In this document: positions 5,591 through 63,880 of the stretch, in pieces
Layout of the letters: each line of letters begins with the position of its first letter
How positions within the stretch are numbered: the first letter of the stretch is position 1
Source of the DNA: a virus
Strand: one strand, 5' to 3'
DNA length: 64,000 bases
Virus record (IMG/VR): IMGVR_UViG_3300032087_003094
Span: 10,481 to 74,480 of that record
Position numbers and translations under genes: made by a program
Notes under the pieces: model-generated
Databases searched by the model: none
The model's input: the letters and a program-made list of their open reading frames with translations, nothing else
What the model was told of the DNA's origin: nothing

Positions 5591-7076
5591 AAAAAATCCA
5601 GCTAAGAAAAAAAGGGCTGAGCTAGAAAGAAAAGTCCTAATCAAAAGAGAGTTAGAGAGGCGTAAGAAAGCTAATCTAGCTTTTGATCAATACAATCAGT
5701 TTTACGACTGGCAAAAAGACTTCTGCGCAGCCACCGCTGATTACTTCGAGTCGTGTCTATGTGCAGCAAATCAAATCGGTAAGACGTTCACCGGTACAAC
5801 TATTGACTCGTTCCATCTCACCGGCGACTATCCAGAAGGCTACCAAGGGCATAAGTTTGACTTCGCTCCTTTGTGCTGGGGTCTTGGTTATTCTATGGAA
5901 AAGTGTCGAGACCTACTACAAAAAGCTTTGTTCGGTGATTATGTTGGTAAAGAGTTTACTGGCGGTCTAGTCCCTAAAGATAAGATAGTAAGCTGGGAGT
6001 CTGCCACTGGGACGCCTAATGCAATGAGAACAGTTAGAGTTAGGCATAAAACTGGCGGCACATCAGTTATTCAATTCTGGTCATATACTCAAGGCCAGCA
6101 TGCCATTATGGGAGATGTTGTTGACTGGTTCCATGTGGATGAAGAGCCGAGAGACCAAACAATCAGACCTCAAGTTCTAACCAGGACTATTAATGGTGAC
6201 AAAGGCAAAGGTGGTAGAGGGATATATACCTTTACTCCTGAGAATGGTCGAACAGAGCTAGTCATTAAGTTTATGGACGACCCAAGCAAAGACCAGTTCT
6301 TTATGCAGAAAGGCTGGATTGATGCGCCTCATATCACAGAAGAGAAACGGGAAAGGATGCTCGAACAGTATCCGGCTCATCAGAGAGATATGAGAACCAA
6401 AGGTATTCCAATGCTAGGTCATGGTCGAATCTATGACTTGTCCGAAGAGTTTATTAAGTGTGACCCATTTGAAATCCCAAGTCACTGGTTTGTTATTGGG
6501 GGAATGGACTTTGGTTGGGACCATCCTCAATCTCAAGTTAAACTGGTTGAAGATAGGGATACTGGCACGTTTTACTTAACTCACTGCTGGAAAGCCTCTA
6601 AAGTTTCTGCCAATGACGCTTGGGGCGCCGTTAAATCATGGCAATCTAATATTCCTGTAGCTTGGCCTCATGACGGACTGCAAAACGAGAAGGGTCGAGA
6701 TGATGCCGTACAACAGAAGGTTCATTATCAAAATGCTGGATTTAGAATGACCTCGGAACATGCTACTCACCCCCCAATCAACAAAGCCGGAAAGATCCAC
6801 GCGGGAGGAAATAGTGTCGAGCATGGGCTTTACGAAATAAGAGATTTAATGTGCAAAGGCAAGTTTAAAGTGTTTAGTGGATGCCTAGAGTTTTTTAACG
6901 AGTTCAATCAATACCATAGAGATGACAAAGGTAAAATTGTAAAAGTAATGGATGACATCTTGGACGGAGTGCGCTACGCCTATATGATGCGTCGATATTC
7001 TGTTAGAATTGGTGATATAATGGCACCAATCAAGAAAGTTTACATACCCCAGCCTTTAAAAACTATGGGAAGATAG
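5583..7076 (+). CDS. terL: Terminase large subunit, P22 gp2-like (module A)
   Basis: Walker A AANQIGKT, Walker B DEEP, TFTPENG, nuclease GMDFGWDHP and DDILDGVRYA. Confidence 0.95.
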   Translation: MNKKNPAKKKRAELERKVLIKRELERRKKANLAFDQYNQFYDWQKDFCAATADYFESCLCAANQIGKTFTGTTIDSFHLTGDYPEGYQGHKFDFAPLCWGLGYSMEKCRDLLQKALFGDYVGKEFTGGLVPKDKIVSWESATGTPNAMRTVRVRHKTGGTSVIQFWSYTQGQHAIMGDVVDWFHVDEEPRDQTIRPQVLTRTINGDKGKGGRGIYTFTPENGRTELVIKFMDDPSKDQFFMQKGWIDAPHITEEKRERMLEQYPAHQRDMRTKGIPMLGHGRIYDLSEEFIKCDPFEIPSHWFVIGGMDFGWDHPQSQVKLVEDRDTGTFYLTHCWKASKVSANDAWGAVKSWQSNIPVAWPHDGLQNEKGRDDAVQQKVHYQNAGFRMTSEHATHPPINKAGKIHAGGNSVEHGLYEIRDLMCKGKFKVFSGCLEFFNEFNQYHRDDKGKIVKVMDDILDGVRYAYMMRRYSVRIGDIMAPIKKVYIPQPLKTMGR

Positions 7077-7077
7077 A

Positions 7078-9138
7078 ATGCTAACAGCTACAGACGTAAG
7101 AGACCTCCACGACAAAGCTTATACCCACGGACAAACAACAAGAGAAAAAGCGGCAGACGATTTACTGTTTTTTTGGTTAAGCCAGTGGGATGACACACAG
7201 CTAGGAGGCTCATCGCTTCAGTATCGTGGCCAATTCGATATGCTTCGAAAGGCTGCTCGTCAAATTATATCAGACATTAAAGCAAACCCAGTGCAGGTTG
7301 ACTTCGAGCCAATTGAAGACACTGACGAGTCAGGCGCAGACATTATTGACGGCATGTATCGTTCAGATATGCGTAACAATTCAGCATTAGAGGCAAGAGA
7401 AAACGCTATCACGGAATCAATTGTTTGCGGCGTTGGCGCATGGGAGCTCTACACTACCTATAAAACTAGACGAAACGGCGACAATCGACAGATAATCAAC
7501 CGCAGGCCGCTATTTGAAGCCAACAATCAAGTATTCTGGGATCCTAACGCAAAGCTTAATGACAAATCGGACGCTAATTACGTGTCGTGCTTGGTTGGGT
7601 ATTCAGAAGATGGATATAAGCAGCTTGTTAAAGAGTTAGGTGGCGATGAGGTAGATGATGTTCCTAAGTCGTTCGCATTTCCTGAGCACTCCTACGTTTT
7701 CCCATGGCTTACTGGAAACACCGATTATTACGTCACTCGATTCTATCATCGAACCAAGAAGAAAGTTAAGATATTCCTATTTGCTGATGCGATTGGTAGC
7801 GAGCAAGAGGTTAGAGAAGATGATCTCGACGATAAAGAAGACGAATTGATTGATAATGACTTTCAGTTAATCGACGAAATCGAAAAGGAAGTCTACGAGG
7901 TTAAGCTTTACATCGTGGGCGGCGGTGATGAGGTATTAGATTGCTCAGTTATACCTGGTGAGCATATACCAGTCATCCCCAATTACGGAGAAAGGGCTTT
8001 TGTTGAAGGTGAGGAGCATTACGAAGGTATAGTCAGGCTAGCAAAAGACCCTCAAAGGCTGAGAAACTTCCAGCTGTCCTATCTTGCAGATATTGTATCT
8101 AAGAGCCCGAGACAGAAACCTATATTCTTTCCTGAGCAGATACAAGGTTTCGAGTATATGTATGAAGAAGCTGGGGCTGATAACAACTTCCCTTACCAAC
8201 TTCAAAACATGAAGGACGCTAACGGAGACCCGTTACCAATTGGCGCTCAAAGTGTTATGCCTGAACAGCCAATGCCTCAAGCTCTTATCGCAAGTATACA
8301 AGCGTCAAGAGAAGCTATTAATGATGTAGCCAGTGAAGGTCTACCCCAAAATATTACTGATATGGATTTAAGTGGTGAGGCTTTAGTCCAAATAGAAAAA
8401 TTATTTGATAAGCAATCTTTTATTTATCAACACAACCTTAAAGCAGCTCTTAGGCGCGATGGTGAGGTTTATGCCTCAATGGCTTCTGTTGTATATGATA
8501 CAGAGCAAGAAGTCTCACTAGTTAAGCCTGACGGTGTAGCATCTAAAGAAGTTATCAATCAGCAGGAGATAGATCCAGAAACGCTACAACTTGTAGTCAA
8601 AAATGACGTCAAAAGTTACATATTTGACGTCTATGCCGACATTGGACCAAGCTTTCAATCCGTTAAAGAGCAGAGCCGCAAAGAGTTAAAGGAGATGATT
8701 AACAGTGAAGCCCCTGACAGTCCTATGCGTCAAATGATGCTGCTTGAATATATGACTATGATTGATGGTGTAGCGTTTAAATCAATGAGAGAGTACGCGA
8801 GGAATCAATTGGTGCTACAGGGTTATGCTGAACCTGAAACTGATGAAGAGAAGCAGATGCTTGCTCAACAGCAGCAATCACAACAAGAACAACCAGATCC
8901 AGCTCTATTGATAGCTCAAGCTGAAATGGGTAAGGCTCAGGCTGAGCAAATGAATGCTCAATCCAATATGATGGATACTCAAATAGATCAATATAATGCA
9001 GAAACTAGCAGGGCTAAAGTTATGGTTGATGCTAAAAAAGCGGATGCCGAGATAAACTTCAAGAACATCCAATCACAAGGCGCTCGAATAGACAACGTAA
9101 GAAAAGTCACCGGCGCAGACCTAAGGCAGAGAGCATAG
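7078..9138 (+). CDS. Portal protein, P22 gp1-like
   Basis: Follows TerL; 686 aa; GIVRLAKDPQRLRN; Gln-rich C-terminal barrel helix. Confidence 0.9.
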   Translation: MLTATDVRDLHDKAYTHGQTTREKAADDLLFFWLSQWDDTQLGGSSLQYRGQFDMLRKAARQIISDIKANPVQVDFEPIEDTDESGADIIDGMYRSDMRNNSALEARENAITESIVCGVGAWELYTTYKTRRNGDNRQIINRRPLFEANNQVFWDPNAKLNDKSDANYVSCLVGYSEDGYKQLVKELGGDEVDDVPKSFAFPEHSYVFPWLTGNTDYYVTRFYHRTKKKVKIFLFADAIGSEQEVREDDLDDKEDELIDNDFQLIDEIEKEVYEVKLYIVGGGDEVLDCSVIPGEHIPVIPNYGERAFVEGEEHYEGIVRLAKDPQRLRNFQLSYLADIVSKSPRQKPIFFPEQIQGFEYMYEEAGADNNFPYQLQNMKDANGDPLPIGAQSVMPEQPMPQALIASIQASREAINDVASEGLPQNITDMDLSGEALVQIEKLFDKQSFIYQHNLKAALRRDGEVYASMASVVYDTEQEVSLVKPDGVASKEVINQQEIDPETLQLVVKNDVKSYIFDVYADIGPSFQSVKEQSRKELKEMINSEAPDSPMRQMMLLEYMTMIDGVAFKSMREYARNQLVLQGYAEPETDEEKQMLAQQQQSQQEQPDPALLIAQAEMGKAQAEQMNAQSNMMDTQIDQYNAETSRAKVMVDAKKADAEINFKNIQSQGARIDNVRKVTGADLRQRA

Positions 9139-9149
9139 TTTCAATAAAT

Positions 9150-9258
9150 TTGCAGCTGGTACTTAATAGTTTTATACTATAGGTACTGGCGAGTGAGTAC
9201 GCAAACCCGAATATAGGCGGTCTTACCTATAGTTATCGTTCACTACGAGGATAATCAA
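9150..9258 (+). promoter_or_regulatory. Promoter and structured leader of the scaffold gene
   Basis: TTGCAG-17-TATACT; ACTATAGGTA/TACCTATAGT inverted repeat (9176-9185/9224-9233); small hairpin over the GAGG RBS. Confidence 0.55.
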
Positions 9259-10308
9259 GTGGAAACATTATCGTTAAGCGAGCTTAAAGCTCAAAACGAG
9301 GCTGCTGAACAGCCTAAAGATACACCGGAAGATGAGTATGTTGAGGTGGATAACGAAACTTTAGAGCCGATTGAGGTTGAGGAACCCGAAGAGCTAGAAG
9401 TTGAAGAAGAAGCTGAGACTGATGACGAAAAGTCAGAACCAGAAGGTGAATTGGAAGACTGGCAGAAGACCGAAGACGATAATAAAAGCGGTTTCATTCC
9501 AAGCGCTGAAGCTAAACATCTACGTCTAAAAAACAAAGATTTAAAGGCTCAGAAAGAGGAAAGAGACGCCGAGCTAGAAGAGCTTAGACAGAAAGTTGAA
9601 GCCTTATCTAATCAACCCAAGAAAGCTGAGGATGTTTTACCTCCAAGGCCGGTATTAGAGGATTATGATTATGATGAGAAGCTTCATGGTGATGCGCTTG
9701 AGGCGTGGTTTGATAAAAAGATCGAGTTAAAACTTAACAAAGGTCTCGAGTCAACCCAGCAAGATAGGGCTAAACAGCTTGAAATTGAAGCGGCAAACAA
9801 AGCTCGGGAAAATGCAGTTCATGAGCATTTAAACAAAGCAAGCAAATTAATTGCTGAGAAGAAGATAACCCAAGACGCTTGGCTAGCTGGAGATTTATTA
9901 ATCCGGCAGACTTTGGATCAAGTGTTTCCAGGTTCAGGCAATGAAGTTGCAGATCAATTTGTCTCACTCATGGAAAGCAATGGCGAAGGTAGCGAGAAAG
10001 CTTGGTTTTACTTAGGCAGAAATCCTAAAGCCCTTAATGAGTTCAAAGACAAACTAATGAACGACAAGACAGGCGCTAGCGGAGTTATGTATTTAGCTAA
10101 GATTCAAGAGAAAGCCTCAAAACCTCCACGTAAAAAACGTAGTGACGCACCAAAACCAGCAGCGGAACTCAAGGGTGACGCAGCAACCGGAACAGCCAAG
10201 TCATTAAAGAAGCAATATGACAAAGCGGTAAAGGATGGCGACACTCAAGGCAGAATTGACGCCAAGAGAGCAGCCAAAAAAGCTGGTGCAGATGTGTCCA
10301 AATGGTAA
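9259..10308 (+). CDS. Scaffolding protein, P22 gp8-like
   Basis: Between portal and coat; acidic N-terminus, coiled coil, basic C-terminal helix-turn-helix. Confidence 0.85.
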   Translation: METLSLSELKAQNEAAEQPKDTPEDEYVEVDNETLEPIEVEEPEELEVEEEAETDDEKSEPEGELEDWQKTEDDNKSGFIPSAEAKHLRLKNKDLKAQKEERDAELEELRQKVEALSNQPKKAEDVLPPRPVLEDYDYDEKLHGDALEAWFDKKIELKLNKGLESTQQDRAKQLEIEAANKARENAVHEHLNKASKLIAEKKITQDAWLAGDLLIRQTLDQVFPGSGNEVADQFVSLMESNGEGSEKAWFYLGRNPKALNEFKDKLMNDKTGASGVMYLAKIQEKASKPPRKKRSDAPKPAAELKGDAATGTAKSLKKQYDKAVKDGDTQGRIDAKRAAKKAGADVSKW

Positions 10309-10321
10309 AAGGTAACTAAAA

Positions 10322-11587
10322 ATGTCTAGTACAGGTAAGATTGTAGAAGTAATGTTTGAGTCCGCGTTAGAGACTTACGAAACCCAAGACATGATGCTCC
10401 CCTTAACGAATTTCTTTGAGCCGGAAGCGGGCGACATGCAGAACTCGGGCAACTTTATTTGGCGCCCAGTCCAGCAACATGCACCAATTATCGACGGCTG
10501 GGATTTAACAGGGTTAGAAACTGATATTATCGAGGAGACCTATCCTGCGATTCTAGGAAGCCCTAAAAATGATTTTGTAGAGCAGCGTGCTGATGATTTG
10601 CGTGATATGACGTTCTGGAAGCGCAGAGGCGAGCAGTCTGGTAGGCGTCAAGCGTCTAACCTTAATCAAACTATCGCGACAGCAGTGGCCACACAAGGCT
10701 CCTTATTCTATCGTGATGTAGCATCGACCAGTGGTTATGATTTCATTGCTCAAGGTCAAGCTATCATGAATGAGAGGCAAGGCGCTCAAAGTGAAAGATG
10801 TTACGTTCTTAATGATCGCTCAACACTTCGTTTTGGTCAGGATTTAGCAGCCAGACAAACTCTTCAGGGTCGCCCTGCGGAAACTTGGAACACTGGTCAA
10901 ATCGGCCAAAATGTAGCCGAGTTTGATGTCTACACTGGCTCATATTTGCCAAACCTAGTAGGCGGTGCAAATCCAGCAACTACCGTAACAGGAGCACAAT
11001 CATTCGCTCCAGAAGGTGGAACGGTTGACGCAGCTACCGGCGTTTGTACTAATGTTGACTATCGTTCAGCAGAGATTCCGGTCGCAGATTCAAGCGGTTA
11101 CAATATTGGAGACAAGGTTACTATTGGCTCTCTTAATGCTGTTGGTCTTGATGACAAAACCGACACTGGTGAGTTGATGACATTCACTATTGTGGCAAAA
11201 CCTTCAGGAACCAGTATCACTGTATATCCTAAACCCATTGCGGCTGATGATGCGGCATTATCAACTTTAGAAAAGGCTTATGCTAATGTTAATACAACAA
11301 TTGCAAACCTTGATACAGTAGATCGTTTAAATACAGACGCTTCAGCAAAAACCAATTTATTTTGGGATAAAGACGCTGTTGAGGTTCTTGGTGGCAGCAT
11401 TCCAGCCAACTTGTTTAAAGAGTTTGACGGCATGAAGGTTGTTTCTAGCACTATGAGCAACGGTCAGACTATGTACATGGTCTACGATGGCGACATTGCT
11501 AAAATGACATTCAGATACCGCTTATTCACTTGGTTTGGCGTGACAATTGCCAACCCTAGCCAGTGTGGTGTTTCAGTATCAGGCTAA
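10322..11587 (+). CDS. Major capsid protein, P22 coat (gp5) family
   Basis: 421 aa; WRPVQQH; I-domain-like insertion (GDKVTIG..LMTFTIV..ITVYPKPI). Confidence 0.9.
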   Translation: MSSTGKIVEVMFESALETYETQDMMLPLTNFFEPEAGDMQNSGNFIWRPVQQHAPIIDGWDLTGLETDIIEETYPAILGSPKNDFVEQRADDLRDMTFWKRRGEQSGRRQASNLNQTIATAVATQGSLFYRDVASTSGYDFIAQGQAIMNERQGAQSERCYVLNDRSTLRFGQDLAARQTLQGRPAETWNTGQIGQNVAEFDVYTGSYLPNLVGGANPATTVTGAQSFAPEGGTVDAATGVCTNVDYRSAEIPVADSSGYNIGDKVTIGSLNAVGLDDKTDTGELMTFTIVAKPSGTSITVYPKPIAADDAALSTLEKAYANVNTTIANLDTVDRLNTDASAKTNLFWDKDAVEVLGGSIPANLFKEFDGMKVVSSTMSNGQTMYMVYDGDIAKMTFRYRLFTWFGVTIANPSQCGVSVSG

Positions 11588-28647: not shown

Positions 28648-29324
28648 GTGATAGCAAACGTAATGGTAAAAAAGAATATTGATGTTAAGTACCTAAAGGT
28701 TTCGGCGAATGTTCGATATTGGGGAGATTCAGAAATTAACGGCGAAATGTCAGATGATGAAGGTGAGGGAGTCCCGTTTAAAAATGCAGAGTTATGGGAG
28801 CCTGTCATTGATGTTGATAAAGGGGCGGTTTGTGACTGGCCTATTGGTACTGTAGCAAAATTTCATTTTAAGGTTTGCGATGCTGGCAGTTACTATTTGT
28901 TGGATGATAACTTTAATGAATTGTTATCAAGGGTAAATAATTACGTTCCTGACGGTTTATGTCATGGCGATGAAGGATATGGGGATTATATTATTTTTGA
29001 TGTAGGGCAGGACGGCTGTATAGTTAACTATTCAAATAAAATTAATATTGAAGATTGGGAAGGAGAGCAATAACAATGAGTAACAAGTGTAAAAATTGTG
29101 ATTCAGGTATTTATTGCCATGATTGCGGGGTGTGTGGAGAGTGTCACACTAGAAAGATATGGGTATTAAAAGAGCAAATAGAGCAACTACAAAAAGAGAA
29201 TGAGGAAAGCTTTAGAAAGGGTTTTTGGGCTGGATATGAAGACGCTAGATGCTTTCCTGATGAAAATAACATATTGCAGCGCTATGCAGCTCTGACTGAA
29301 AATAGGAATAGCAATGACCAATAA
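28648..29324 (+). CDS. Two hypothetical genes (28648-29073; ~29076-29324 with CxxC/CxxH zinc motif)
   Basis: First is repeated at 63881; second has CKNC..CHDCGVCGECH. Confidence 0.65.
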
Positions 29325-29354
29325 AATAATAATACACAACCAGTCAAACTAGTT

Positions 29355-29453
29355 TATAATACATATACGCGGCTAGGTTTAGCGACCGAAAAACAAACCC
29401 CTTATTTGTTTGCCGCTCATATTTCATAAGGGCTGATGCTAAAGGAGCGTTAA
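29355..29453 (+). ncRNA. C4-like two-loop antisense RNA with downstream targets at the RBS
   Basis: TATAAT; GCGGC/GCCGC closing stem; TTTAGC and CCCTTAT in the two loops are complementary to GCTAAA 29438 and ATAAGGG 29426, next to AAGGAG. Confidence 0.7.
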
Positions 29454-29967
29454 ATGATAGATCTAAAAACCTGCACAAGAGCCGATTTTATAGAGGCTTA
29501 CACAAATCTAGAAAACTCTCACAAGCACCTAGAAAGCGAAGTTCATCATCTTAACGAGCGCCTGCAGGAATACGAAGGCATTCAAACTGATGATGAAAAG
29601 GAGGCGGAGTTTCAAAAAATTCTGGACGATGTACGAAAAGAAAGGAAATCTCAAAACTACCCGAACTAGGTGGAATAAGCTAAGCAATAAGAAAAAGAAG
29701 CTAATATTCGACCACCTGCCAAAGTATGTGAAATCAACCTACAAAGATGCTCGATACCCATCAAGAAAAAATGCAGAGGTCTACATTAGTAAAGAAGCAT
29801 GGCTTGATGAAATTATTGAGAATAAAGACTATCAGAAGTTTTCACCACAGCCAGCGGTAGGAAGCGCATCATTTAAACCAAGCCCGATAAAAAATAGAAG
29901 CAAGGAGCTAGATAGGCTTAGAGAGCAGAGTAAATCGGTTAACATTAAAGAGAGGTTAGGGTTATGA
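29454..29967 (+). pseudogene. Replication-initiator-like protein split by a frameshift in an A6 run
   Basis: Removing one A at 29614-29619 gives EAEFQKFWTMYEKKG..WNKLS, a motif typical of phage replisome-organiser C-terminal domains. Confidence 0.6.
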
Positions 29968-30149
29968 GTAGCAATAACTGGATAGATGTGAATCACTGTA
30001 GATTATGTGGCGGTCCTATAAATTATGATAGGGGTATAGTGCTGACAAGTTCACCACCTCAATATTAAGGGCGATGCCAAGATTGCGGAGATTTAACAAA
30101 TAGATTGTGCGGCGAGGTTGATCAAAACACCAACAAAGCAAAAGGATAG
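29964..30149 (+). pseudogene. Small zinc-ribbon gene with internal TAA (30066-30068)
   Basis: CRLCGG..VLTSSPPQY*GRCQDCG; second CxxC is in frame after the stop. Confidence 0.65.
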
Positions 30150-30155
30150 TAAATA

Positions 30156-30893
30156 ATGATTGAGATACATAATATTGATTGCATGGAATATATGAAAAGC
30201 ATGAGTGATGAAAGCGTTGATTTGATTGTTACCGATCCGCCTTATGATATAAAAAACACAACATCGGGCGGCGACTCCGATCTTTCTCGCAGCATCCAAT
30301 CTCAACATGATCAATTAATCAGAGACAATATAACCAACTCCATAGATTATTCTAAAGTTTGCGCGGAGATGGTTAGAGTCTGTAAGAAGATAAATATCTA
30401 TATATGGTGCAACAAAGCCCAAATTCCCTACTATTTGAAAGAGTTTTACGCCGATAGGGGCTGCTCGTTCGATATTATTAAATGGGTTAAAACAAATCCC
30501 GTACCGGCTTATTGCAACAAATATATGACAGACACCGAATATTGTTTATATTTCAGGAAAGGCGGTTATTGCATGCCTCAAAATTCGTCTGATGCATCAA
30601 CGCTATATAGTGCACCAATAAACCAGCTAGATAAAAAGAAATATAAACATCCAACCATAAAACCTGTTGATATCCTCAAGCGGCTAATAAGGAATAGTTC
30701 AAAAGTTGGCGATCTGGTATTTGATCCTTTTGCTGGTTCGGGTAGTACGGGGGTTGCATCAGCGATTGAAGGCAGGGGGTTTATAGGGTGTGAGCTTTTG
30801 CAAGAATATACCGATATTGCTAGGTATAGAGTAAGCGAGATAATAGGGGGCAACAAAGTCAACTCTCACACTGGTCAAGCGGCACTGTTTTGA
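30156..30893 (+). CDS. DNA methyltransferase (N6-A/N4-C, beta class)
   Basis: DLIVTDPPY, HPTIKP, DPFAGSGSTG. Confidence 0.95.
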   Translation: MIEIHNIDCMEYMKSMSDESVDLIVTDPPYDIKNTTSGGDSDLSRSIQSQHDQLIRDNITNSIDYSKVCAEMVRVCKKINIYIWCNKAQIPYYLKEFYADRGCSFDIIKWVKTNPVPAYCNKYMTDTEYCLYFRKGGYCMPQNSSDASTLYSAPINQLDKKKYKHPTIKPVDILKRLIRNSSKVGDLVFDPFAGSGSTGVASAIEGRGFIGCELLQEYTDIARYRVSEIIGGNKVNSHTGQAALF

Positions 30894-31048
30894 ACTGGTC
30901 AAGAAAGCACAAATACTACACTGATAGCGGCCCATATAGAATATGCTGGACAGATGCTAGGCCACCGCTATTTATGTGTAGTTATAAGAAAGAGTTTATT
31001 GGCAAGTCGAACAATGCCGATGAAGCCAGGCGAATTTGTGAAAGCCAT

Positions 31049-31219
31049 TCACTCACCTGAAGCTACAAAGCTAGAGTTATTCTCTTTTTCAAGTTCTTCT
31101 TCTATCAGTTGAGCAATGATATCCTGTTTTGTTTTGATGATAGCATCTCTATTTTTTCTGATAGCCGATAAGGTGCTTAAGTTTTCGTTAGCCAAGTCTG
31201 AGATTTTAATTGTTTTCAT
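31049..31219 (-). CDS. Small ribbon-helix-helix-like regulator (56 aa, not in ORF track)
   Basis: MKTIKISDLANENLSTLSAIRK..KQDIIAQLIEEE; AGGTGA RBS; divergent from TTGCAT-16-TATACT (31248-31275). Confidence 0.65.
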   Translation of the reverse strand: MKTIKISDLANENLSTLSAIRKNRDAIIKTKQDIIAQLIEEELEKENNSSFVASGE

Positions 31220-31308
31220 GTATTCACCTAAGTAGTCAAAAAAGTAGTTGCATAATTAGTAAGATGAAGTATACTAGATTCATTGGATAAAGTTAAGGAA
31301 TAAATCAA

Positions 31309-31884
31309 ATGAAAACAACATTAGGTAAGATTTGGGAGTTCGGTCCTTGCTGTAGAGAGGATGAGTCTGGCGGGTGGGGTTTGCTAACTAAAAACTTAGG
31401 AACTAGCGATCACTCAAAAGAAGTTGATTTGATGGAAATATTAAAATCAAACGGAATTAAAGATGCAGTTTGGGCTTTAAGATGTTTTGATTATCTTGAT
31501 TATTGCCTTTTTCTTGCTGATGTTGCAGAAAGCGTACTTGATATTTATGAGAAGAAAAACAGTTCAAGCGCTCCGAGATTAGCAATTCAGGCAGTTAGAG
31601 ATTATAAGGCTGGAGGTATAACAAAAGAAAAATTACGATCTGCTGCTGATGCTTATGCTGCTTATGCTGCTGCTGATGCTTATGCTGCTGCTTATGCTGC
31701 TGATGCTGCTTCTGCTTATGCTGCTGCTTATGCTGCTTATGCTGCTGATGCTGCTTATGCTGCTGCTGATGCTGCTGCTGATGCTTCTGCTGCTGCTGAT
31801 GCTTCTGCTGCTTATGCTGATGCTAGATCAAAAAAATGGGATGAAATAGAACAATTATTCATTAAGCATTTTGGAGATAAATAA
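31309..31884 (+). CDS. Phage protein with Ala/Tyr/Asp low-complexity tract
   Basis: ILKSNGIKDAVWAL and PRLAIQAVRDY motifs plus (AADAY)n. Confidence 0.8.
   Translation: MKTTLGKIWEFGPCCREDESGGWGLLTKNLGTSDHSKEVDLMEILKSNGIKDAVWALRCFDYLDYCLFLADVAESVLDIYEKKNSSSAPRLAIQAVRDYKAGGITKEKLRSAADAYAAYAAADAYAAAYAADAASAYAAAYAAYAADAAYAAADAAADASAAADASAAYADARSKKWDEIEQLFIKHFGDK
31640..31824 (+). repeat. GCT/GAT/TAT/TCT codon-level tandem repeat
   Basis: About 185 nt of nNT triplets, mostly GCT. Confidence 0.9.
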
Positions 31885-32262
31885 ATGAGTCAATTAACAT
31901 TTTTCGAACAGTATGTAGAATCAGTATTCGGCCTTGAAGATGTAACTTACATCTCAGACGAGCAAGCGCTATCAAATCTAGGTTTTATGCAAGTCAACCA
32001 TCCTGATGAGTATCAAGAGATAATCGACCAAGTAAACGCAAGCTATGAGCCGCCAGAGGGTAAAGAATGCGACCTCGATGAATTAACAGACGCTATCACT
32101 AATAGAAACCCAATGAAGTTCGTTGTGGAATTAGAGCGATTAATGATAGTCGAGTTCAAAGCTTACATTGATGAAGTTCAGCAAGAAATCGCATACAAGA
32201 GTGCAAATCCAGAGCGTGACGGCTCTTATGAGACTAAGCAAGCAAGGGAGATGGTGTTATGA
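31885..32262 (+). CDS. Hypothetical acidic protein
   Basis: ORF track; coupled to neighbours. Confidence 0.65.
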
Positions 32263-32969
32263 GAGAGATTAAGTTCAGGGCGTGGGATAAAGATAAAAGC
32301 AAGGGTTATCTGATGCACGGCTATCAGTATAGAAAAGCTGAATATCACCCTTTAGCCACTTCTCGCGGTTATGTTTTAGAGCATAGGCTTGTTATGGAGA
32401 ATCATCTTGGTAGGTATTTGGAAAAAGGGGCGGTTATCCATCATAAAAATGGTGTTAGAGATGATAACAGGTTGGAAAACTTAGAGTATCATCAAGAGCA
32501 GTCTAGGCACGCAAAGTCACATGATTCCGGAGTTAGAAATAAAAACGGGCAGTTTGTTGCAGAATCGCAAGAATTTCAAAACAAAAAATTTAAACTTTTT
32601 AATAAAAATTCTAAACAGGTTCAAATTTTTACTCTGCAAAAGCTTATATCTACAACATTTAGAAGAAGTCAATTTGAGTATTGCGGAGAGTTTACCGGTC
32701 TAAAAGACAAGAATGACGTTGAGATTTATGAGGGGGATATAGTTAAAGTAGTATATGAGGAATATCCAGATGAAGATTTTGCGATCGGAAAGGTGTGGTG
32801 GTTTCAATGCTATTATCCGGCTTTTGATGTTTATGTTCCTTCGGAGCGAGCAAAGACAGGATTTGAAAGCTACTCTGATGGATATAACGCGTTCACATGC
32901 GATGAAATATCAATTGAGGTAATCGGCAACATCTACGAAAACCCAGAACTACTAGAGGTTAAACAATGA
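32259..32969 (+). CDS. YopX-family protein with in-frame HNH endonuclease insertion
   Basis: [10 protein letters not shown] ... [18 protein letters not shown] ... [13 protein letters not shown] flank [28 protein letters not shown]. Confidence 0.85.
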
Positions 32970-33230
32970 AACTAACAATAGAAGAAAGAAAAGAGCTAGC
33001 ATGGGTAATAGCTGGCTGCATATTTTTAATATCATTAATGAGTTTGGTGGAGTCGATATGAAAACAGAAACGCAAGAAATGGAGAGCAATTTAGCTCTCG
33101 CGTGGTTCGATGGTGTTTATACTCAAGATCAAGCACAAGTATCTGCCGAGCTTCAAGGGTTGAGTTTTGAAAATATAGTAAACGAATACTCAAAGCTTTA
33201 TCACGATGCAGAAAGCGCGGGGGCTTATCA

Positions 33231-33887
33231 ATGGAATTAGTAGAAAAATTAGCAAATATTCAACAACGCTTAGTTGCGCCAAAAGGGCAAACTAACAAGT
33301 TTGGCGGGTACAAATATCGATCTTGCGAGGATATTTTAACGGCCTTAAAACCATTACTTGATGATTGCGCGCTTACCATTACCGACGAAATTCAAATGAT
33401 AGGCGACCGCTTTTATGTAGTCGCAACAGCAACATTAACAAACGGCAAAGACTCAATTAGTGTTAAAGGCTACGCTAGGGAGTGCGAAAGCAAAAAAGGG
33501 ATGGATGATAGCCAGTTAACCGGCTCGTGTAGCAGCTACGCTAGAAAGTACGCCCTAAACGGCTTGTTCTGTATTGATGACTCAAAAGACGCTGATGCGA
33601 TGGACAATAGAAAACCGCAACTGCCAAGCAAGCTAAAAAAGATTTATCAGCAAGCGCGTGAGCACTACGATGCTGGTGATTTGCAGGCGGTTAGAGAGGT
33701 TTTAGCTAGCTTTGAAATGATTGAGCAACAAAGAGCGGTAATGCTTGAGTTCGTATCAAATGAAAGAGCGGCAATAACCAAATATGTAAAAGAAAACGCG
33801 GATAGTCGGTGCGATGTCCAAAAAGCGGATTACTTAACAGCGAAAGAGCATGATCAACTGTGTAAAAACTACGGATTCAACGGATAA
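33231..33887 (+). CDS. erf: ERF-family single-strand annealing protein
   Basis: APKGQTNKFGGYKYRSCEDI and Q.TGSCSSYARKYALNGLF..DD.KDAD. Confidence 0.9.
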   Translation: MELVEKLANIQQRLVAPKGQTNKFGGYKYRSCEDILTALKPLLDDCALTITDEIQMIGDRFYVVATATLTNGKDSISVKGYARECESKKGMDDSQLTGSCSSYARKYALNGLFCIDDSKDADAMDNRKPQLPSKLKKIYQQAREHYDAGDLQAVREVLASFEMIEQQRAVMLEFVSNERAAITKYVKENADSRCDVQKADYLTAKEHDQLCKNYGFNG

Positions 33888-33902
33888 CAAAAGGGTAATA
33901 AA

Positions 33903-34364
33903 ATGAAAGGCGTAAACAAAGCAATAATAGTGGGGACGTTAGGTAAAGACCCAGAAATTAGATACGCTCCAGCAGGCGCAGCAATAACAAATATCAGCGT
34001 TGCAACAAGCGAAAGCTGGAAAGATAAAAATTCTGGCCAAAAACAAGAGAAGACAGAATGGCATCGAGTGGTATTTTTTGGGAAGCTGGCTGAAATTGCT
34101 GGCGAATACTTGAAGAAAGGCTCTCAAGCTTATATTGAAGGCAAGCTTCAAACCCGTAAATGGCAGGATAAACAAGGTCAAGACCGTTACACAACTGAAA
34201 TCGTTGTTGATGGCTTTAACGGCGTTATGCAAATGTTAGGCGGCAAGGGTGACAACAATCAAGCAAAGCCGCAATCAGAAAGTCAAGGTAGTCAACAATA
34301 CCAAAAAGACGCACAGCAAGCGCAGCAATTTGATAATAGCTTTGACGACGACATACCCTTTTAA
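33903..34364 (+). CDS. ssb: Single-stranded DNA-binding protein
   Basis: [21 protein letters not shown]-terminal DDDIPF; gammaproteobacterial style. Confidence 0.97.
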
Positions 34365-35306
34365 CCATAAGGAATAGATGATGTTTGAATCGGTAGCGGT
34401 ATGGGCAGATGTTGGGCATGGAAAGTTTTTAACTAAAGACAGACACCTTACTAGTAGAGAGGCTCGGACAGTCTGCGAATTGTTGGAGAAAAACGGCTTT
34501 GGAGGTGAGGGTTTAGTATTTCCAGAGTCAACAGAGGTTAGAGAAATTAACACCGACGGCTCGCACTTAACAGAATTCGAGAAAAAAGCTGGCTTCGACG
34601 GTAAATAATCAACCATAAGGAATAGATGATGGGACCAATAAGATTTAGTTTTAAACCATTAGTGGTAATAGCCATTCTTCTTTCTGCGGTTGTAGGGTGG
34701 GCGGTCATAGAACTTTTGATATGGCTGATTAAAAATGTCAGTGTAACTTTTGGATAAGGAATAGATGATGAGTGTAGGCGGGAAAGTAATAGATCATAAA
34801 ATATTCGATGAAAAAGTTTATATAAACACAACTGACGGTAGTGAGTGCGCTATCTATGTGGAAAGAGACAAAAACTCAGAGTCGGTATCAATTAACGATG
34901 TTGTTTGGTGGCAGGGCGATAAAGCATACTGGACTACAAAGGATAGAAAGGCTCAGGTTGAAACAGTCTTATTTAGACGCGGCTTTTCTGGTGTTCCTTA
35001 TCCGCACGACAAGCCAGAAGTGAAGCCTAAATATTAACCAACCATAAGGAATAGATGATGATTGAGCTATCTAATAATCAAATTTCAATACTAGGCAAGC
35101 CAAATTTTGCATGCGCACCTATTGCAAAACTACTGATAAAGCATTCGATTTATGAAGATAAAGAAAACAAGGCGGAATATGAGCAAGCTGTTTTCATCCA
35201 TTGGGCGAGTGATTTGCTTGAAAAATTTGGTGATGGCTGGGTTGATGAAGCAAAAAGAATAATTGACAAGCTGTTAGAAGCCGAATCTTTAATCAACCAT
35301 AAGGAA
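34363..35306 (+). repeat. Gene-junction direct repeats AACCATAAGGAATAGATGATG
   Basis: Full copies at 34363, 34611, 35040; 3' 17 nt at 34754; 5' 12 nt at 35295. Confidence 0.9.
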
Positions 35307-35464
35307 GGTAACGAGAAATGAGGTGGCTTTGGATAAAAATTAGATGTTTCTTTGGTTGGCATGTATGGGCTTGGAAACTTAGAAGCGGGTCAATCATCTA
35401 TATGCAAGGTGACCCTCCAAGTGATGTTAAATGTAAATATTGTGGAGAGATATGGGATGAATAA
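34378..35464 (+). CDS. Five small cassette-like genes (34378-34608, 34626-34757 membrane peptide, 34765-35037, 35055-35321, 35318-35464 Cys/His zinc-ribbon)
   Basis: First four start in the ATGATG of the repeat; the last has CFFGWH..CKYCG. Confidence 0.7.
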
Positions 35465-35698
35465 CCTAACACAAGAGCAAGTGAGGGAAAAAAGAATTAA
35501 TGCGTTTTGGAACGGTGTTTTACTTAACTGGTATTTTAGTGGTAAGTATTGGTATTGCGGGACAGCTAAAAGAAATGCCAAAGTGAATGGAATAACTTGC
35601 AGAAAAAGTGGCAGCGGAAACAACAAAGACGAGGCTTTTCAGGATTTTAGGAATGCTAATGGGGTTTATGATTGTCAGCCACAAGAGAAAGCTAAATA

Positions 35699-36124
35699 AT
35701 GACCTCTTTCACCATAAACTCAAAACAAGCCGTTGAAAGCTTTCAAGAGTTTATACAAGAAGAATTTATAAAAGAAAAATACTTGATAGCTAAGATAGTC
35801 AAGGCCACAAGGTTGCAAATTCAAAATCGATGGATACAACAGTTTTACAATATGGTGTCAGGTCAGACAGGCCAGCCAAGGCAAACGCTAGTCAACCACT
35901 GCAAGTATTATCACGGCATGCCTATACTGCTAGCAGACCAGCCAGAACAAGCGGAACTATGGCGCAAGATGATGATTCCGCTAACGGAAGAAGAAAGGCT
36001 TGCAGCTATGGAAATAACGGCTGTAACTAGCTTGATGGACGTTCACGAGTGTTCAGATTATATTAAACAGTTGATAGCTCATTTCGATCACTGCGAGCTA
36101 CCAAGAAAACAATGGAGAGAGTAA
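35699..36124 (+). CDS. NinB/YbcN-like protein
   Basis: R..IQNRWI..FY, CKYYHGMPIL, VTSLM...SDYI; nin-region synteny. Confidence 0.6.
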   Translation: MTSFTINSKQAVESFQEFIQEEFIKEKYLIAKIVKATRLQIQNRWIQQFYNMVSGQTGQPRQTLVNHCKYYHGMPILLADQPEQAELWRKMMIPLTEEERLAAMEITAVTSLMDVHECSDYIKQLIAHFDHCELPRKQWRE

Positions 36125-36371
36125 TGAAAGTAGATGAGTATGATGTGCCAAGGCTTATTCAAAAAATGGAATACAGCTACTCTGCAATGGCGTTTACGGT
36201 TTTATTCTTTAATGATAGGCAAAGCTCATTCCCTACTGATCTTGTATGTCCATCCATAGGCTTAATGCAAAGCAAGCCAACAAGAATGCAGTGGCTGGAG
36301 GCTGAAAACAATATAAGAAAATACGTTGATAAGAATTGGAAATCAATGAATTCTTAAGAGATAGCTAAATA

Positions 36372-36992
36372 ATGCCAAACGCTAAACTAAAATGCTGCAA
36401 CTGCAAAGATAGGTTCAAGCGCGAATCTATGACCAAATTACCAGTGGGCAACTTCTGTAGCCAGGATTGCATTGTTGAGTACGCAGCTAATAAGGGCAAG
36501 AGGGCAGTTAAGAGGCAAATAGCAAAAAAAAAGAAAAAAGACAACCTAGAAAAAAAGCTTTTTAATATTAACGATGTCAAGAAGCAGTTAGAGCTAACAC
36601 AGCCTGTATTTAACAAGCTTAGACGATTACAAGAGTTTGAATGGTTCAAGCAAAGAGGTTTGGAGCCTGAGTGTATAAGTTGTGGAAAAAAGAATATGGA
36701 CTGGTGTAACGGCCATTTTAAAACGGTAGGCTCTCAGGGAGGCTTAAGGTTCGACCCTATGAACAGTTATTTGCAATGTAATCGATATTGCAACAAAGGG
36801 CTAAGTGGGAATATTGAAGGCAATAAAAACACTCGAGGCTATAAGGTTGGACTGGCTGAGAGGTTCGGCGCTGACAGGGCTAAAGAGATAATAGAATACT
36901 GTGAGATTGATCAAGTAAGAAAGTGGACTGGTCAAGAGCTATTTGAAATGAGAAAAGAATTCAACAAGCAAATTAGAGATTTAGAAGCTTAA
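36372..36992 (+). CDS. ninG: NinG/Rap-like recombination endonuclease
   Basis: CCNC, FCS..C, CISCG, GHF, LRF...N..QC..CN. Confidence 0.9.
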   Translation: MPNAKLKCCNCKDRFKRESMTKLPVGNFCSQDCIVEYAANKGKRAVKRQIAKKKKKDNLEKKLFNINDVKKQLELTQPVFNKLRRLQEFEWFKQRGLEPECISCGKKNMDWCNGHFKTVGSQGGLRFDPMNSYLQCNRYCNKGLSGNIEGNKNTRGYKVGLAERFGADRAKEIIEYCEIDQVRKWTGQELFEMRKEFNKQIRDLEA

Positions 36993-36993
36993 C

Positions 36994-37065
36994 AGCGTCT
37001 AGCACTTCCTTTCTGCGGGTTTTGGCCGAATATCCCAACTCCCGCTTTAGGTTAGGCGTTTTTTT
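36994..37065 (+). terminator. Extended hairpin/terminator after ninG
   Basis: AGCGTCTAG/TTAGGCGTT outer stem, inner GCGGG/CCCGC stem, T run. Confidence 0.65.
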
Positions 37066-37121
37066 ATATTTTTGATACAATAAAAGAGTTCTGCTGAAAC
37101 GAGGGGCTGTTTGCCCCACTA

Positions 37122-60210: not shown

Positions 60211-60417
60211 GTGAACAATACGAGACGTCCAAACAATGTAAGAAAAATTAGGAGAGCGCAAGATTTTACGTTGCAATCCCTGGCTGATATGGTCGGCACT
60301 AGTAAAAGCTATATTCACGATTTAGAGAATGGAAATATTAGAAGTCCATCCCTAGGTAAGGCTAGATTGATAGCTATGAATCTTAATTCAACAGTTGACG
60401 AGGTATTTCCACAATGA
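60211..60417 (+). CDS. XRE/Cro-family HTH regulator
   Basis: TLQSLADMVGTSKSYIHDLENG..PSL. Confidence 0.9.
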   Translation: MNNTRRPNNVRKIRRAQDFTLQSLADMVGTSKSYIHDLENGNIRSPSLGKARLIAMNLNSTVDEVFPQ

Positions 60418-62683
60418 ATAACGAACAAGATAACGCAACAGAAGGTCAAGTAAGCCTACTGTGTTTAGCTGGCATAGGTTTACTGTTTTGGCTGATTGGG
60501 CTTGGTTTAATATGGTTTATAGGGTGGTTAGTGTCATGAGAACTATTCAGAGCAGAATACAGCACTGCAAAAACAGAGTTCCTATCGCGGCGCCAAAGAC
60601 CGAGGAAAGCGCAAAACTTCAAGCTGATGTGGATGCATGGCTAGCGAAGGGTAACGAGATTTACGACGCTGATAAAAAAGAGGCTAATTTTAGGAACGAC
60701 ATTGAAAAATCCAGAGCCTACAAAAAACGCACCAAGCCAGTGCTAAACCTATCTATGTGGCGCTTTAGAGACGAGGATACCATCCTAACCACTAAAGATA
60801 TGGTAAGGGTTTTAGAGTGCTCCAGCGATTGGGTTGTGACCGAATACACTAAAAAGCATCTTATTCCAGCGCCCTACAAAATCAGAGATTTAGATGGGAA
60901 GGTAAAAATAACCAAGCAAAACCACAACGCCAACTATTGGAAGTTAGGCGATTTAATCAAACACAATAAGGAGTTATCGAAATGAATAATGGAGATATGC
61001 CAATAAATGCCACATCGCCAAACAAGCATCAACCAGAATGGGCAGCGGCTAGAGTTGGAGGCCTAACCAAGAGAGAGTATTTCGCAGGGCTGGCCATGCA
61101 GGGCATGCTATCAAGTTCGGATTACGCCACATCCACATGGAATACTGTGGCTATAGAGGCTGTAGAGGTCGCAGACGCACTACTAAAGGAGCTAGAAAAA
61201 TGAGGCAGTCAACTGAACTAAGCAACTTAGTCGCTAAACACCTGCAAGGTCAAGTGCCACCTACAGTAGTTAATGAATTTAACAAGCTAATTGTAAAAAT
61301 GCGTAAAGATGAGTCGACCATTGCGGACGCTGTGGAAAAATTAGAAGTTATCCACAACCCTCAAGTTGGAGTAAATAACTTAAACGACGAAATACTCAAG
61401 GGGAAGCTCTTTGAAATTTAGACTTGAATCGCTCGTAAAGAGCTACAACAAGCCTAAGAAGCACGATATTGAGAAAGATGTAGAAGTTATCGATTTAGAA
61501 GAGAAAACGCCGTCAGAGGCCGATTTCGAGCTTGCTGATGCTATGATAGAGTATTATAGGGAGGAATTATGAAAGATTTGTTACCAGCGTTGATCCTTGT
61601 TTGGCTTGGGGGTTTTTTCTTCGGGGGCGCTGTTTTTGGTGATTTTGAAAAACCCAAGCAGCCTACATGCCAAAGCGAATTCAACCAGAAAGTTAAATCA
61701 ACCAGTATCGAGCATGGTCAAGATATCCCACACAAGGGAAAGCGGCCTAATCGAATAGTAATTGAATGTGAGGGTAGGTAGATGCTATTTAATAACGCTG
61801 CAAAGGGTAGGTTAATGAGCGGATTTGACGCTGAATTTATTGAAGCATCATCTCGCGATCTTGCTAAAAGAGAGATTGAAGACTTCGAGCTTGATTTATT
61901 CAACGCTAAAATTAGATCTATACAGCTTGCAAATTTAAAGAAAAAGGATAACAAACAATGAGCATAGTAGAGTATGATTTTAGCGATGATGAGTTAAATT
62001 TCATTAATTGTGATTCAGATGTAATCCAATTAGAGGCTCTTGGGTATAGCGATTGTTATGATAATGAATGCTTCATTGACATCAGAAAACAAGACGCCAT
62101 AGCTATAGCCAAGCACTTTAACGAGGATAGGGAGTCTCTAGTGGAGGGTATAAAGGAGATGATTTACAAACTTGAAAATAAGACGCGTGGAGGGGTAAGT
62201 TTGCAGGCGTTAATGACTCAGCACTCACAAACAGATGAATTTATTGGCGACCTACAAAAACTAATAACTAAGGAGGAATAGAAGAATGAAAGCCAATATG
62301 ATAGTTAGGATTTTAGGCGCTATAGCGTTGATGTATTTTGTTTATCAAGAGACTGGCTGGGCTACAACTATTTGCTTGTCGTTTATCACTCTTCAGGTTG
62401 AGCTTTCAGAGTATATCAACAAGTTAAGGAGGAATAGAGAGTGAATGATATAGAGTTTATTATCTTGTGGTTTTTGTCTGGATTTTTGCCATTTTTCTTA
62501 TCAGGGATTGTGATGGAATCAAGAAGCCCTAAAATTGATTTTGGGTTGATCTTGCTTTCGATTTTGTCTGGCGGCTTTGGATTTTTATCGTTTTTTTTAT
62601 TCTTCCCAGTATTTATATTTATTTGCTTCCAAAGAGCATTCTTTTTTATTAATGACAGGAGGCTAGACAATAACCAAGAATGA
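60414..62683 (+). CDS. Second mosaic copy of the early small-gene run (60414-60539, 60536-60985, 60982-61203, 61200-61421, 61569-61781, 61958-62281, 62441-62683 and others)
   Basis: Gene-by-gene similarity to 25276-27668 with swaps and insertions. Confidence 0.75.
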
Positions 62684-62698
62684 GGTATAATTAAAAAC

Positions 62699-62844
62699 GC
62701 TGAAATGAGACGCAGCAAAGATTTAAAAACACACAAACAGATAATAGAAAGACTTTAAGAGAACTCAGAAAGCCTAGTTGTAATTCGTTTGTGTGTAACT
62801 AGATCAAGCTTGTCTCAACTGGGTTCCCTTAAGGTCTTTTTTTT
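62699..62844 (+). ncRNA. P4-CI/P1-C4-like antisense/attenuator RNA, copy 2
   Basis: GTTTGTGTGT (62787) pairs with ACACACAAAC (62729); GTCTCA (62812) pairs with TGAGAC (62706); U8. Confidence 0.7.
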
Positions 62845-62866
62845 CGCCTCAAGTTTCCTCAGTAAA

Positions 62867-63370
62867 TAGATGATAAGAATACAACAGCCAGTCCTGGGCA
62901 GCGAACGTGACTTAAAAAGGCCCACTTATATCATCTACAGTTAGCATATCAACGACCACTTGTCACAGATTGGGTTTAAGTCCCTTTTGGAGATAACTGG
63001 CGGGAATATTAATTCCGACGATGCCGTTTCAATAGGCGGCGTTGATATGCTAATTGACAAGTCCTTAAGAATTTAGATTCTTGTTCAGCAGAAATGAAAA
63101 TGAATGCCTATAGCTAAAGGCTTTAAACAGCAAATAACAAACTAATTTTTTCTGTCTCTAAGTTACGACTTTTGAGGGTGAGGATAAAGCAGGTTAATGT
63201 TGACATATTTGCCAATAACACGAGATTTAACAAATCAATAATCGGGCAAGGTCGGGGCGACACCCTAAAAATGTTCTGCATATCGTGAGCTTAGAGAATA
63301 ACAGAGAGAGGGTAAACTAAGTAGATCTTATTATAGGTCAACTCAAACCCTCATTAGACAACCTATAACT
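62867..63370 (+). ncRNA. Tandem stem-closed structured RNA-like domains, copy 2
   Basis: Stems 62867-75/62929-37, 62938-54/63040-56, 63155-68/63283-97. Confidence 0.55.
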
Positions 63371-63391
63371 TAATAACTGGAGAATAGAGGA

Positions 63392-63577
63392 ATGAAAATT
63401 AAAGTAACAGTAAATACAGGCTGGGCAAATTGTGATCATATTGATTATGAAGACCTGCCTAGCGATTGGGAATCACTAACAAGCAAAGAAAAAGGGAACT
63501 ATTTGCACGAAAGCGCGCAAATTATGTTAAATGAGCACTGTCAGGCGTACGCTGAAGTAGTTGACGACGAAGAATAA
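63392..63577 (+). CDS. Small acidic hypothetical protein, absent from copy 1
   Basis: GAGG RBS; lies between the non-coding cluster and the DUF6378-like gene. Confidence 0.7.
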   Translation: MKIKVTVNTGWANCDHIDYEDLPSDWESLTSKEKGNYLHESAQIMLNEHCQAYAEVVDDEE

Positions 63578-63603
63578 ACCCCTATTAACTAAAGGAAAAC
63601 AAT

Positions 63604-63861
63604 ATGAAAGTAGAAGAAACGCTGAAAGAGCGAGGTGAGCGATACGGTAGTTTTGATGGTTATGCTATGCAGTTGGAAGCATTGAAAAATGCGGTTGACT
63701 TGGAGGCTTCATGCCTTAATTGCGTTCACAAAGCCGGAATGGAGATGATATTAACTAAGATAGCTAGGATTATGAATGGCGATCCTGATTATGTTGACAA
63801 TTGGCATGATATAGCTGGATATGCAACATTGGTAGAAAGAGATATTGAAAAGAATTTTTAA
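63604..63861 (+). CDS. DUF6378-like protein, copy 2
   Basis: Differs from 28371-28628 at 2 of 85 residues. Confidence 0.85.
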   Translation: MKVEETLKERGERYGSFDGYAMQLEALKNAVDLEASCLNCVHKAGMEMILTKIARIMNGDPDYVDNWHDIAGYATLVERDIEKNF

Positions 63862-63880
63862 CTAAATAGGAGGTAAGAGA

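Follow-up and report, generated by a model that had tools for sequence, protein, structure and literature searches.

The mosaic joints of phage genomes are the subject of a textbook dispute, in which random illegitimate recombination followed by selection is set against homologous exchange at conserved linkers, and to our knowledge conserved linkers are rarely found at such joints. The described systems that come closest to the locus considered here are the boundary (or linker) sequences of lambdoid phages (Susskind and Botstein 1978; Clark et al. 2001, as cited in PMC3029335), the promoter-early stem-loop (PeSL) cassettes in the hyperplastic regions of T4-type phages (Arbiol et al. 2010, PMC2839356; PMC4122927), for which mini-circles have been proposed as the vehicle (PMC2839356), and the start-associated sequences (SAS) of cluster K mycobacteriophages (Pope et al. 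2011, PMC3203893), whose function is unproven. The locus lies in a stretch of 64,000 nt of viral DNA, bases 10481-74480 of the 74.5-kb IMG/VR virus record IMGVR_UViG_3300032087_003094 (hereafter the window), in which a 21-bp repeat heads a tandem array of small genes. It is probable that this repeat, T1, and a related sequence, T2, are clade-specific gene-junction linkers, which combine the stop, ribosome site and start of adjoining genes with a short-homology crossover site.

Three exact copies of the 21-mer AACCATAAGGAATAGATGATG lie on the plus strand of the window (Table 1) against none expected (100 dinucleotide-preserving shuffles gave no match at 3 mismatches), and with up to 3 mismatches no further matches were found on either strand of the window. 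T1 is written (AACC)ATAAGGAATAGATGATG, that is AACC followed by a 17-nt core, and the core is present once more by itself, its TAA being the stop of a 43-aa gene. The 5' 12 nt of the repeat, AACCATAAGGAA, which T1 and T2 have in common, return at 35295-35306, where they are followed by GGTAACGAGAAATG and a start at 35318, and T2 is thus AACCATAAGGAA-GGTAACGAGAAATG; a third joint, T3, reads GGAGAAAGCTAAATAATG and lies upstream of a NinB-like gene. A preliminary description of the window had placed the whole repeat before 34378, 34626 and 35055, its 3' 17 nt before 34765 with the TAA doubling as the upstream stop, and its 5' 12 nt before 35318, all in an array next to erf-ssb, and each of these elements was recovered, with PF04404 and PF00436 directly upstream. 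It had also called the genes in between unrelated, and they are: the four repeat-headed open reading frames (76, 43, 90 and 88 aa), all beginning Met-Met, and the T2-headed one of 48 aa show no similarity in blastp among themselves, and forced pairwise alignment gives at most ~20% identity.

Exact copies of the 21-mer were found in six further IMG/VR contigs, and a seventh was recovered with the 17-mer; these array-bearing contigs, which belong to uncultured marine phages and come from two metagenomes, are numbered G001-G007, the window's genome being G000. A scan of JGI metagenomes for the repeat gave one extra 1.7-kb contig. Three single-copy matches to the 21-mer in bacterial genomes (Fusibacter, Chlamydiales and Clostridiales contigs) were taken as chance, as were those to the 17-mer in 19 IMG/VR contigs outside the clade (once each, none like the window). 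More distant relatives found by way of NinB (~60% amino acid identity) have neither T1 nor T2, and the T1/T2 family is therefore regarded as clade-specific. One more distant relative (L050 6610-7296) has three consecutive small genes, each headed by a CAATAAAGGAA-like joint, which may be a weaker and different junction family in another clade.

Within the clade the junction is always clustered, and a genome has one such cluster or two, with 1-8 copies of T1 in the T1-bearing genomes and none in L017, the sibling unit that makes up bases 1-10480 of the window's record. Conservation across the 28 copies, taken from 9 loci, is 93-100% for the 17-nt core and 64-82% for the AACC. The layout is a number of T1-headed genes followed by a T2-headed closing gene, with T2 closing the T1 array in 8 of the 9 T1-bearing loci that extend past the array; G003 has a T2-like copy without a start codon. 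In L017 an ssb-like gene with the same 3' end leads into AACCATAAGGAA-GGTAACGAGAATG and a single 93-aa gene, without a T1 array. The genes themselves vary greatly, as the 41 junction-headed open reading frames across ten loci fall into 30 families, 23 of which are singletons. Fixed gene content in a fixed order, without insertions or deletions bounded by the repeat, would have spoken against exchange at the repeat; comparison of related contigs clearly goes the other way, since the ten arrays, from nine whole-array loci and a contig of sequencing run X4, all have different gene sets (Table 1). Two cassettes have become fused in G001 (L011 5638-6054), where a 138-aa open reading frame runs through an internal junction, AACAATAAGGAACAGATGATG, whose TAG has become CAG in frame, and the second half of which is a separate 80-aa gene in G004.

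The breakpoints between arrays lie at the junctions. In an all-against-all blastn comparison of array regions every one of the 36 ends of intra-array matches is 0-6 nt from a junction. Cassette F1 (window 35039-35306) is 98.1% identical to its copy in G003 and 97.9% to that in G005, with T2 to its right in the window and G005 and another T1 cassette in G003. The pair F0 and F2 (window 34617-35051) is 97% identical to G006 and G007, in both of which T2 comes directly after F2, making F1 a clean one-cassette difference from the window. All 91 codons of F2 are identical in the window, G006 and G007, the neighbouring F0 differs at 11-13 of 44 codons, and identity therefore steps at the junction. 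Over the 10-kb early region G005 has in common with the window only F0 (95.2%), F1 (97.9%) and 237 bp at 75%, and cassettes are 95-98% alike as against 87-93% for the conserved flanking genes; because G005 shares almost nothing other than F0 and F1, and because cassettes exceed their flanks in identity, the comparison speaks for a recent transfer of cassettes between phages that are otherwise unlike each other.

Single-cassette differences are also apparent in Logan contigs of four runs, which were compared over window 33000-36600. Run X4, an isolate-sized data set from a different study, has a 35.9-kb contig at depth 151 that joins 34614 to 34754 and skips 139 nt (17 nt fit both sides, with 238 nt on the shorter side), and the F0 cassette is thus missing exactly, T1 core to T1 core. 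In the same contig 182 other letters replace F1 between two AACCATAAGGAA copies and 306 other letters replace the 48-aa gene, the latter replacement being found in the X2 and X3 contigs too. In X2 and X3, joints covered on one side by no more than 23-28 nt were left uncounted, because the repeat itself fits several places. The idea put forward from the window alone, that of an accordion in which single genes come and go at the repeat and each arrives with a ready ribosome site, is supported by these breaks 0-6 nt from junctions and precise junction-to-junction insertions and deletions, with replacement to be added, and each cassette does keep its ribosome site.

It could be argued that the variety of the arrays is an artefact of assemblers having misjoined co-occurring strains at short repeats, as the 74.5-kb record of the window resembles a head-to-tail join of two sibling ~36-kb genomes and the short X2 and X3 contigs break at junctions. 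A repeat of 17-26 nt is shorter than usual read lengths and the final k-mers of metagenome assembly, and reads should therefore span it. The order F6-F0-F2 is moreover found in two different metagenomes (G006, G007), the isolate-sized X4 run of another study lacks F0 core to core within its single deep contig, and the reading frames and the stops used are consistent with each junction. The window array is also reproduced when the probable source run is assembled independently, as one 1453-nt contig over 34345-35797 with zero differences. With this evidence on both sides, misassembly as the source of the variety is hardly credible.

Cassettes are not confined to the main array. A second cassette site, which the window does not have, lies between the NinG terminator, which it directly follows, and a TTGCGA-17-TATAAT promoter-like site. 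In G006 it is empty, reads ...TTTTTTATTAACCAGCCATAAGGAATAAGCAGCCCTAAATTGCG... (L016, reverse-complement coordinates about 5630-5660) and holds one ATAAGGAATAA copy, and in the filled sites of G004 and G007 the cassette is flanked on both sides by ATAAGGAATA. The occupant in G007 is the 180-bp cassette F11, 90% identical to the array copy in G001, and that in G004 is F3, 94% identical to the array copy in G001, the homology in both cases running junction to junction. As F3 and F11 are in the main array of G001 and in the second site elsewhere, the same cassettes occupy different sites in different phages. One junction in the empty site and two in the filled site is the signature that insertion by recombination in the junction would leave, and the simplest intermediate for insertion at a single-copy site would be a one-junction circle. 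Whether the phages possess an integrase-free system, in which recombination between two flanking junctions frees a circle made up of a single gene with a single junction, able to insert again at any copy of the junction, is doubtful, though we regard it as a possibility worth stating. Such a circle might land in the main array, in the second site downstream of NinG or in a relative that infects the same cell, and the landed gene could be expressed anywhere, since the junction would bring with it an all-frame stop, a ribosome site and a start.

The F1 family suggests that a gene may acquire the junction on arrival. Its 42 homologues, 50-70% identical, share the invariant motif GxPNFACA...AEYEQAV.IHW, and no Pfam or PHROG entry was found for it. 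The 13 IMG/VR homologues from outside the clade (~11 distinct upstream contexts) have unrelated upstream sequence and lack the junction, and T1 would therefore have been added when F1 entered the array of this clade; on this evidence the junction belongs to the array and not to the gene. A single ATG-AT start is present in 11 of these 13, and because the single Met of the homologues aligns with the second ATG of window F1, that ATG is probably the real start. The product of F1 is predicted to be a small helical phage protein (fold pLDDT 90), for which a search against PDB and BFVD gave no significant match, the best being an uncharacterised Caulobacter phage protein at E 0.08.

Much of the junction can be read as a translation element. 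UAAGGA is the 5' part of the canonical Shine-Dalgarno sequence UAAGGAGGU, with a spacing of 4 nt to the first ATG and of 7 nt to the second. The T1 core holds TAA, TAG and TGA, one per frame, and upstream genes make use of all of them, stopping at the core TAA (6), at the TAG or a TAA in the TAG position (7) or at the TGA within ATGATG (2), with most of the remaining upstream genes stopping just before the core. The 61-nt stretches at the four T1 junctions of the window are unstructured on both strands (-2.7 to 0 kcal/mol, z 0.0 to +1.3), and no local inverted repeat or hairpin was found at the junction on either strand. Neither T1 nor T2 has a -35/-10 arrangement, promoter-like and terminator-like sites are no commoner in the region than in shuffles, and the one weak promoter-like site within the array (34547-34576, 9/12) is inside a cassette and not at a junction. 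These features are consistent with translational coupling along a single early transcript. Within the mRNA the linker would end the upstream gene, offer an unstructured UAAGGA ribosome site and start the next gene, and stops in three frames would let promoterless small genes be translated in any order within that transcript.

It might be, then, that the junction is kept mainly as a shared translational operator or enhancer which co-regulates the array genes, be it through an RNA-binding factor of phage or host or as an especially efficient initiation or re-initiation site, and that recombination is a by-product. The register of the junction to the start codon is fixed and on one strand only, positions outside UAAGGA and ATG are also ~100% conserved, the region is as unstructured as expected of an initiation site, and there is a precedent in the 13-bp start-associated sequences of cluster K mycobacteriophages (PMC3203893). 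An operator does not, however, explain core-to-core insertions and deletions, the sharing of cassettes alone between dissimilar phages or the filled and empty second site, and F1 homologues in other phages do without the junction. There is no antisense partner of the junction in the window (no reverse-complement match >10 nt anywhere in it), Rfam gave no match over 33000-36500 even at E <= 1, and no candidate binding protein was identified. That regulation is the main reason for the junction is therefore unlikely, although the operator role and the crossover role can coexist.

Under the reading that we prefer, with T1 and T2 as both translational linkers and crossover sites, the identical 17-21 nt, often extended to 25-30 nt, would act as short-homology crossover points by which single genes could be deleted, inserted, replaced, exchanged between co-infecting relatives or moved to the second site, and the candidate agents are an annealase of the phage or of a co-infecting phage, host RecA and replication slippage. 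A number of points weigh against this. The evidence for recombination is all comparative, with no event observed and the direction, gain or loss, not given. Phage mosaic joints favour gene boundaries anyway, through selection, and as every boundary here carries the repeat the coincidence of breakpoints alone is no proof of homology-driven exchange. Stops in three frames are suggestive only, occurring in ~5% of composition-matched 17-mers and at 6 of 94 gene starts of the window. Most relatives are metagenome assemblies, and the window's record itself has the look of two joined siblings, whilst translation, coupling and the choice of start codon are read from sequence. The repeat, at 17-21 nt, is also shorter than the minimal efficient pairing segment, quoted as 23-27 bp for Red-beta and 31-34 bp for RecA (PMC3945230). 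Longer shared stretches do exist, with 58 nt for the ssb end and junction together and 30 nt at 83% between the ends of F2 and F1, and despite the short homology rare events are enough on an evolutionary time scale.

As to the agent, it had been supposed that the ERF annealase of the phage itself drives the exchange, and this part of the preliminary description is not supported. ERF is found in G000, G004 and G007 only; G006 has a RecT-like protein, G002 an exonuclease and an unknown 328-aa protein and G003 a RecE-like exonuclease, and G001 and G005, with the largest arrays, gave no ERF, RecT or AAA_24 match. In these last two the arrays lie between small genes homologous to window genes downstream of NinG, and terminase. 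ERF is a neighbour of the array whose part in the mechanism is not demonstrated, and the mechanism is presumably general or annealase-mediated homologous recombination. The description of the array as integron-like holds as an analogy and fails as a mechanism. Five genomes that are complete or nearly so (G000, G001, G004, G006 and G007) gave no match to the tyrosine integrase domain PF00589, where 14 of 14 control genomes match, and an integron is ruled out by the absence of an integrase and by the hairpin-free junction.

A dedicated site-specific recombinase might still be proposed, with an unrecognised enzyme that recognises the junction in a true integron-like or shufflon-like system, given that the same short site flanks every cassette, that there is one copy at the empty site as against two at the filled site, and that several conserved neighbour genes have no known function. 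The five genomes hold no tyrosine recombinase (serine recombinases were not searched for), the junction is without inverted repeat or hairpin on both strands, and over 12-kb regions G001 and G005 share with the other array phages only a few small gene families of unknown function, none of them annotated as a recombinase. Crossovers are, furthermore, found anywhere within the shared 12-21 nt, as homology predicts, and a dedicated enzyme is very improbable.

The array sits in a lambdoid-type early region, as judged by the ERF and SSB genes that adjoin it upstream and the NinB/Orf-like and NinG/Rap-like genes downstream. No close relative was found among cultured phages, in which only ssb and erf match, at ~70%. 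The 3' end of SSB (DDDIPF and the stop) forms with the junction a 58-nt block common to three relatives with a different gene body (window 34317-34374 against L012, L014 and L017, 87-91%, the match stopping inside the junction), and for this reason the SSB 3' end is taken as the left anchor. In relatives the block closes a different and shorter protein (105-113 aa), the L012 member of which has no SSB-family PHROG match. On the right the NinB-like gene has 89-93% nucleotide identity to relatives. Between the array and this gene is an 80-aa open reading frame starting MNNLTQEQ, the first ~32 nt of which (window 35457-35489) are 97-100% identical among genes with different remainders (relatives L011 6955-6986 and L014 oriented 6062-6093), a mosaic joint inside a coding region. 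Further upstream a 191-aa gene with an Ala/Tyr-rich low-complexity region (window 31309-31884) is bordered on either side by similar ribosome-site/start joints, GGAATAAATCAAATGA and GGAGATAAATAAATGA (window 31291-31312 and 31867-31888); four relatives have a single such joint, directly 5' of a conserved 125-aa gene, and the 191-aa gene therefore looks like a further joint-bounded insertion.

The products of the cassettes give few leads. Several carry CxxC pairs, and Pfam and PHROGs searches of 32 cassette proteins gave only three weak DUF-type matches and three unnamed PHROGs. In tblastn against phage records F2 and F28 had no match and F1 one weak match to a hypothetical protein, and an ESM Atlas search of the cassette proteins gave no named lead; an anti-defence role of this cargo is a guess.

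With regard to the record as a whole, window 25276-28767 matches 60414-64000 at 87-95% and L017 matches window 28977-37067 piecewise, which suggests two related ~36-kb phage genomes joined head to tail. The early regions of the two units are 82-95% alike, patchwise, and the record may be an assembly join of two co-occurring strains and not one genome.

Table 1. Junctions, genes and arrays at the locus (window coordinates unless a contig is named; in array strings a slash marks the first T2)
Feature	Position	Strand	Remarks
ERF-family single-strand annealing protein, 218 aa	33231..33887	+	PF04404, E 1.7e-37; phrog_155
SSB, 153 aa	33903..34364	+	PF00436; left anchor of array
T1 junction copy 1	34363..34383	+	SSB stop TAA overlaps first two bases
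Cassette F28, 76 aa	34378..34608	+	found only in window and run X4 contig
T1 junction copy 2	34611..34631	+	exact 21-mer
Cassette F0, 43 aa	34626..34757	+	hydrophobic single-pass peptide; also G005, G006, G007
T1 junction copy 3, 17-nt core only	34754..34770	+	TAA = F0 stop
Cassette F2, 90 aa	34765..35037	+	also G006, G007
T1 junction copy 4	35040..35060	+	exact 21-mer
Cassette F1, 88 aa	35055..35321	+	present G003, G005; absent G006, G007
T2 junction AACCATAAGGAAGGTAACGAGAAATG	35295..35320	+	5' 12 nt as in T1
T2-headed gene F29, 48 aa	35318..35464	+	Trp-rich, CxxC
80-aa gene starting MNNLTQEQ	35457..35699	+	open reading frame after array
T3 junction AAGAGAAAGCTAAATAATG	35682..35701	+	third conserved gene joint, before NinB-like gene
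NinB/Orf-like recombination mediator	35699..36124	+	phrog_7283, E 1.6e-13; right-hand conserved flank
NinG/Rap-like junction endonuclease	36372..36992	+	PF05766
Second site	L016 6580-6610	-	
Second site	L038 3314-3510		
Second site	L014 2731-3000	-	
Window array			F28-F0-F2-F1 / F29
G006 array			F6-F0-F2 / F4
G007 array			F6-F0-F2 / F26
G005 array			F21-F0-F22-F23-F1 / F24
G003 array			F18-F1-F19
G002 array			F5 / four T2-headed genes
G004 array			F5 / cl5
G001 array			two arrays in series, nine genes
Sibling unit L017			none / F25
X4 run contig			F28-F2-(182-nt segment) / (306-nt segment)

The value of the locus lies in that the clade is an unusually clean linker case, with gains, losses and swaps of single genes and a change of site all bounded by the linker, and the linker model of mosaicism is directly testable in it. 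The linker is also a natural scarless connector of stop, ribosome site and start that could serve the design of synthetic operons. Some 30 families of small early proteins with fast turnover are marked out by the array, and it is in genome regions of this kind that host-takeover or anti-defence genes have come to light.

In the literature full text no description of a tandem array of stop/ribosome-site/start linkers was found, and the known systems each agree with it in part. Integrons, like the array, consist of promoterless single-gene cassettes, vary greatly in content and have the same site on either side of each cassette; they work by attC x attI recombination through IntI, whereas T1 has no integrase and no folded attC-like site and is the translation start itself. 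The SAS, in the parts of PMC3203893 drawn on here, are likewise asymmetric conserved ribosome-site motifs, set 3-7 nt ahead of the ATG of many non-structural genes, in one orientation and sometimes with the upstream stop inside the motif. They are of 13 bp with a motif, GGGATAGGAGCCC, that is different from T1, are scattered over half the genome, mostly stay with gene families and are mentioned in those parts without cassette insertions or deletions, whereas T1 is in tandem, bound to the array, marks recombination breakpoints and heads 30 families. In the case of PeSL cassettes repeated motifs again flank small genes, there non-essential ORFans, and insertions, deletions and replacements between close relatives are accounted for by recombination from repeat to repeat. 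PeSL elements act on transcription, by a sigma-70 promoter and a terminator hairpin, whereas T1 and T2 have neither and act at the translational joint, and unlike the T4-type hosts of PeSL the array phages are small (~35-43 kb) and lambdoid-like. The lambdoid linkers, as far as they are summarised in PMC3029335, are short conserved boundary sequences which phages that differ elsewhere have in common, and homologous exchange has been proposed to take place at them. In the present arrays homology between genomes does start and end at the junction (36/36 ends, 0-6 nt). T1 differs from these in being reused 1-8 times in tandem with 93-100% conservation over 17 nt, and in bounding single genes rather than modules whilst itself forming stop, ribosome site and start. 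The closest concept is the lambdoid boundary or linker sequence, and the closest worked example is the T4-type PeSL cassette.

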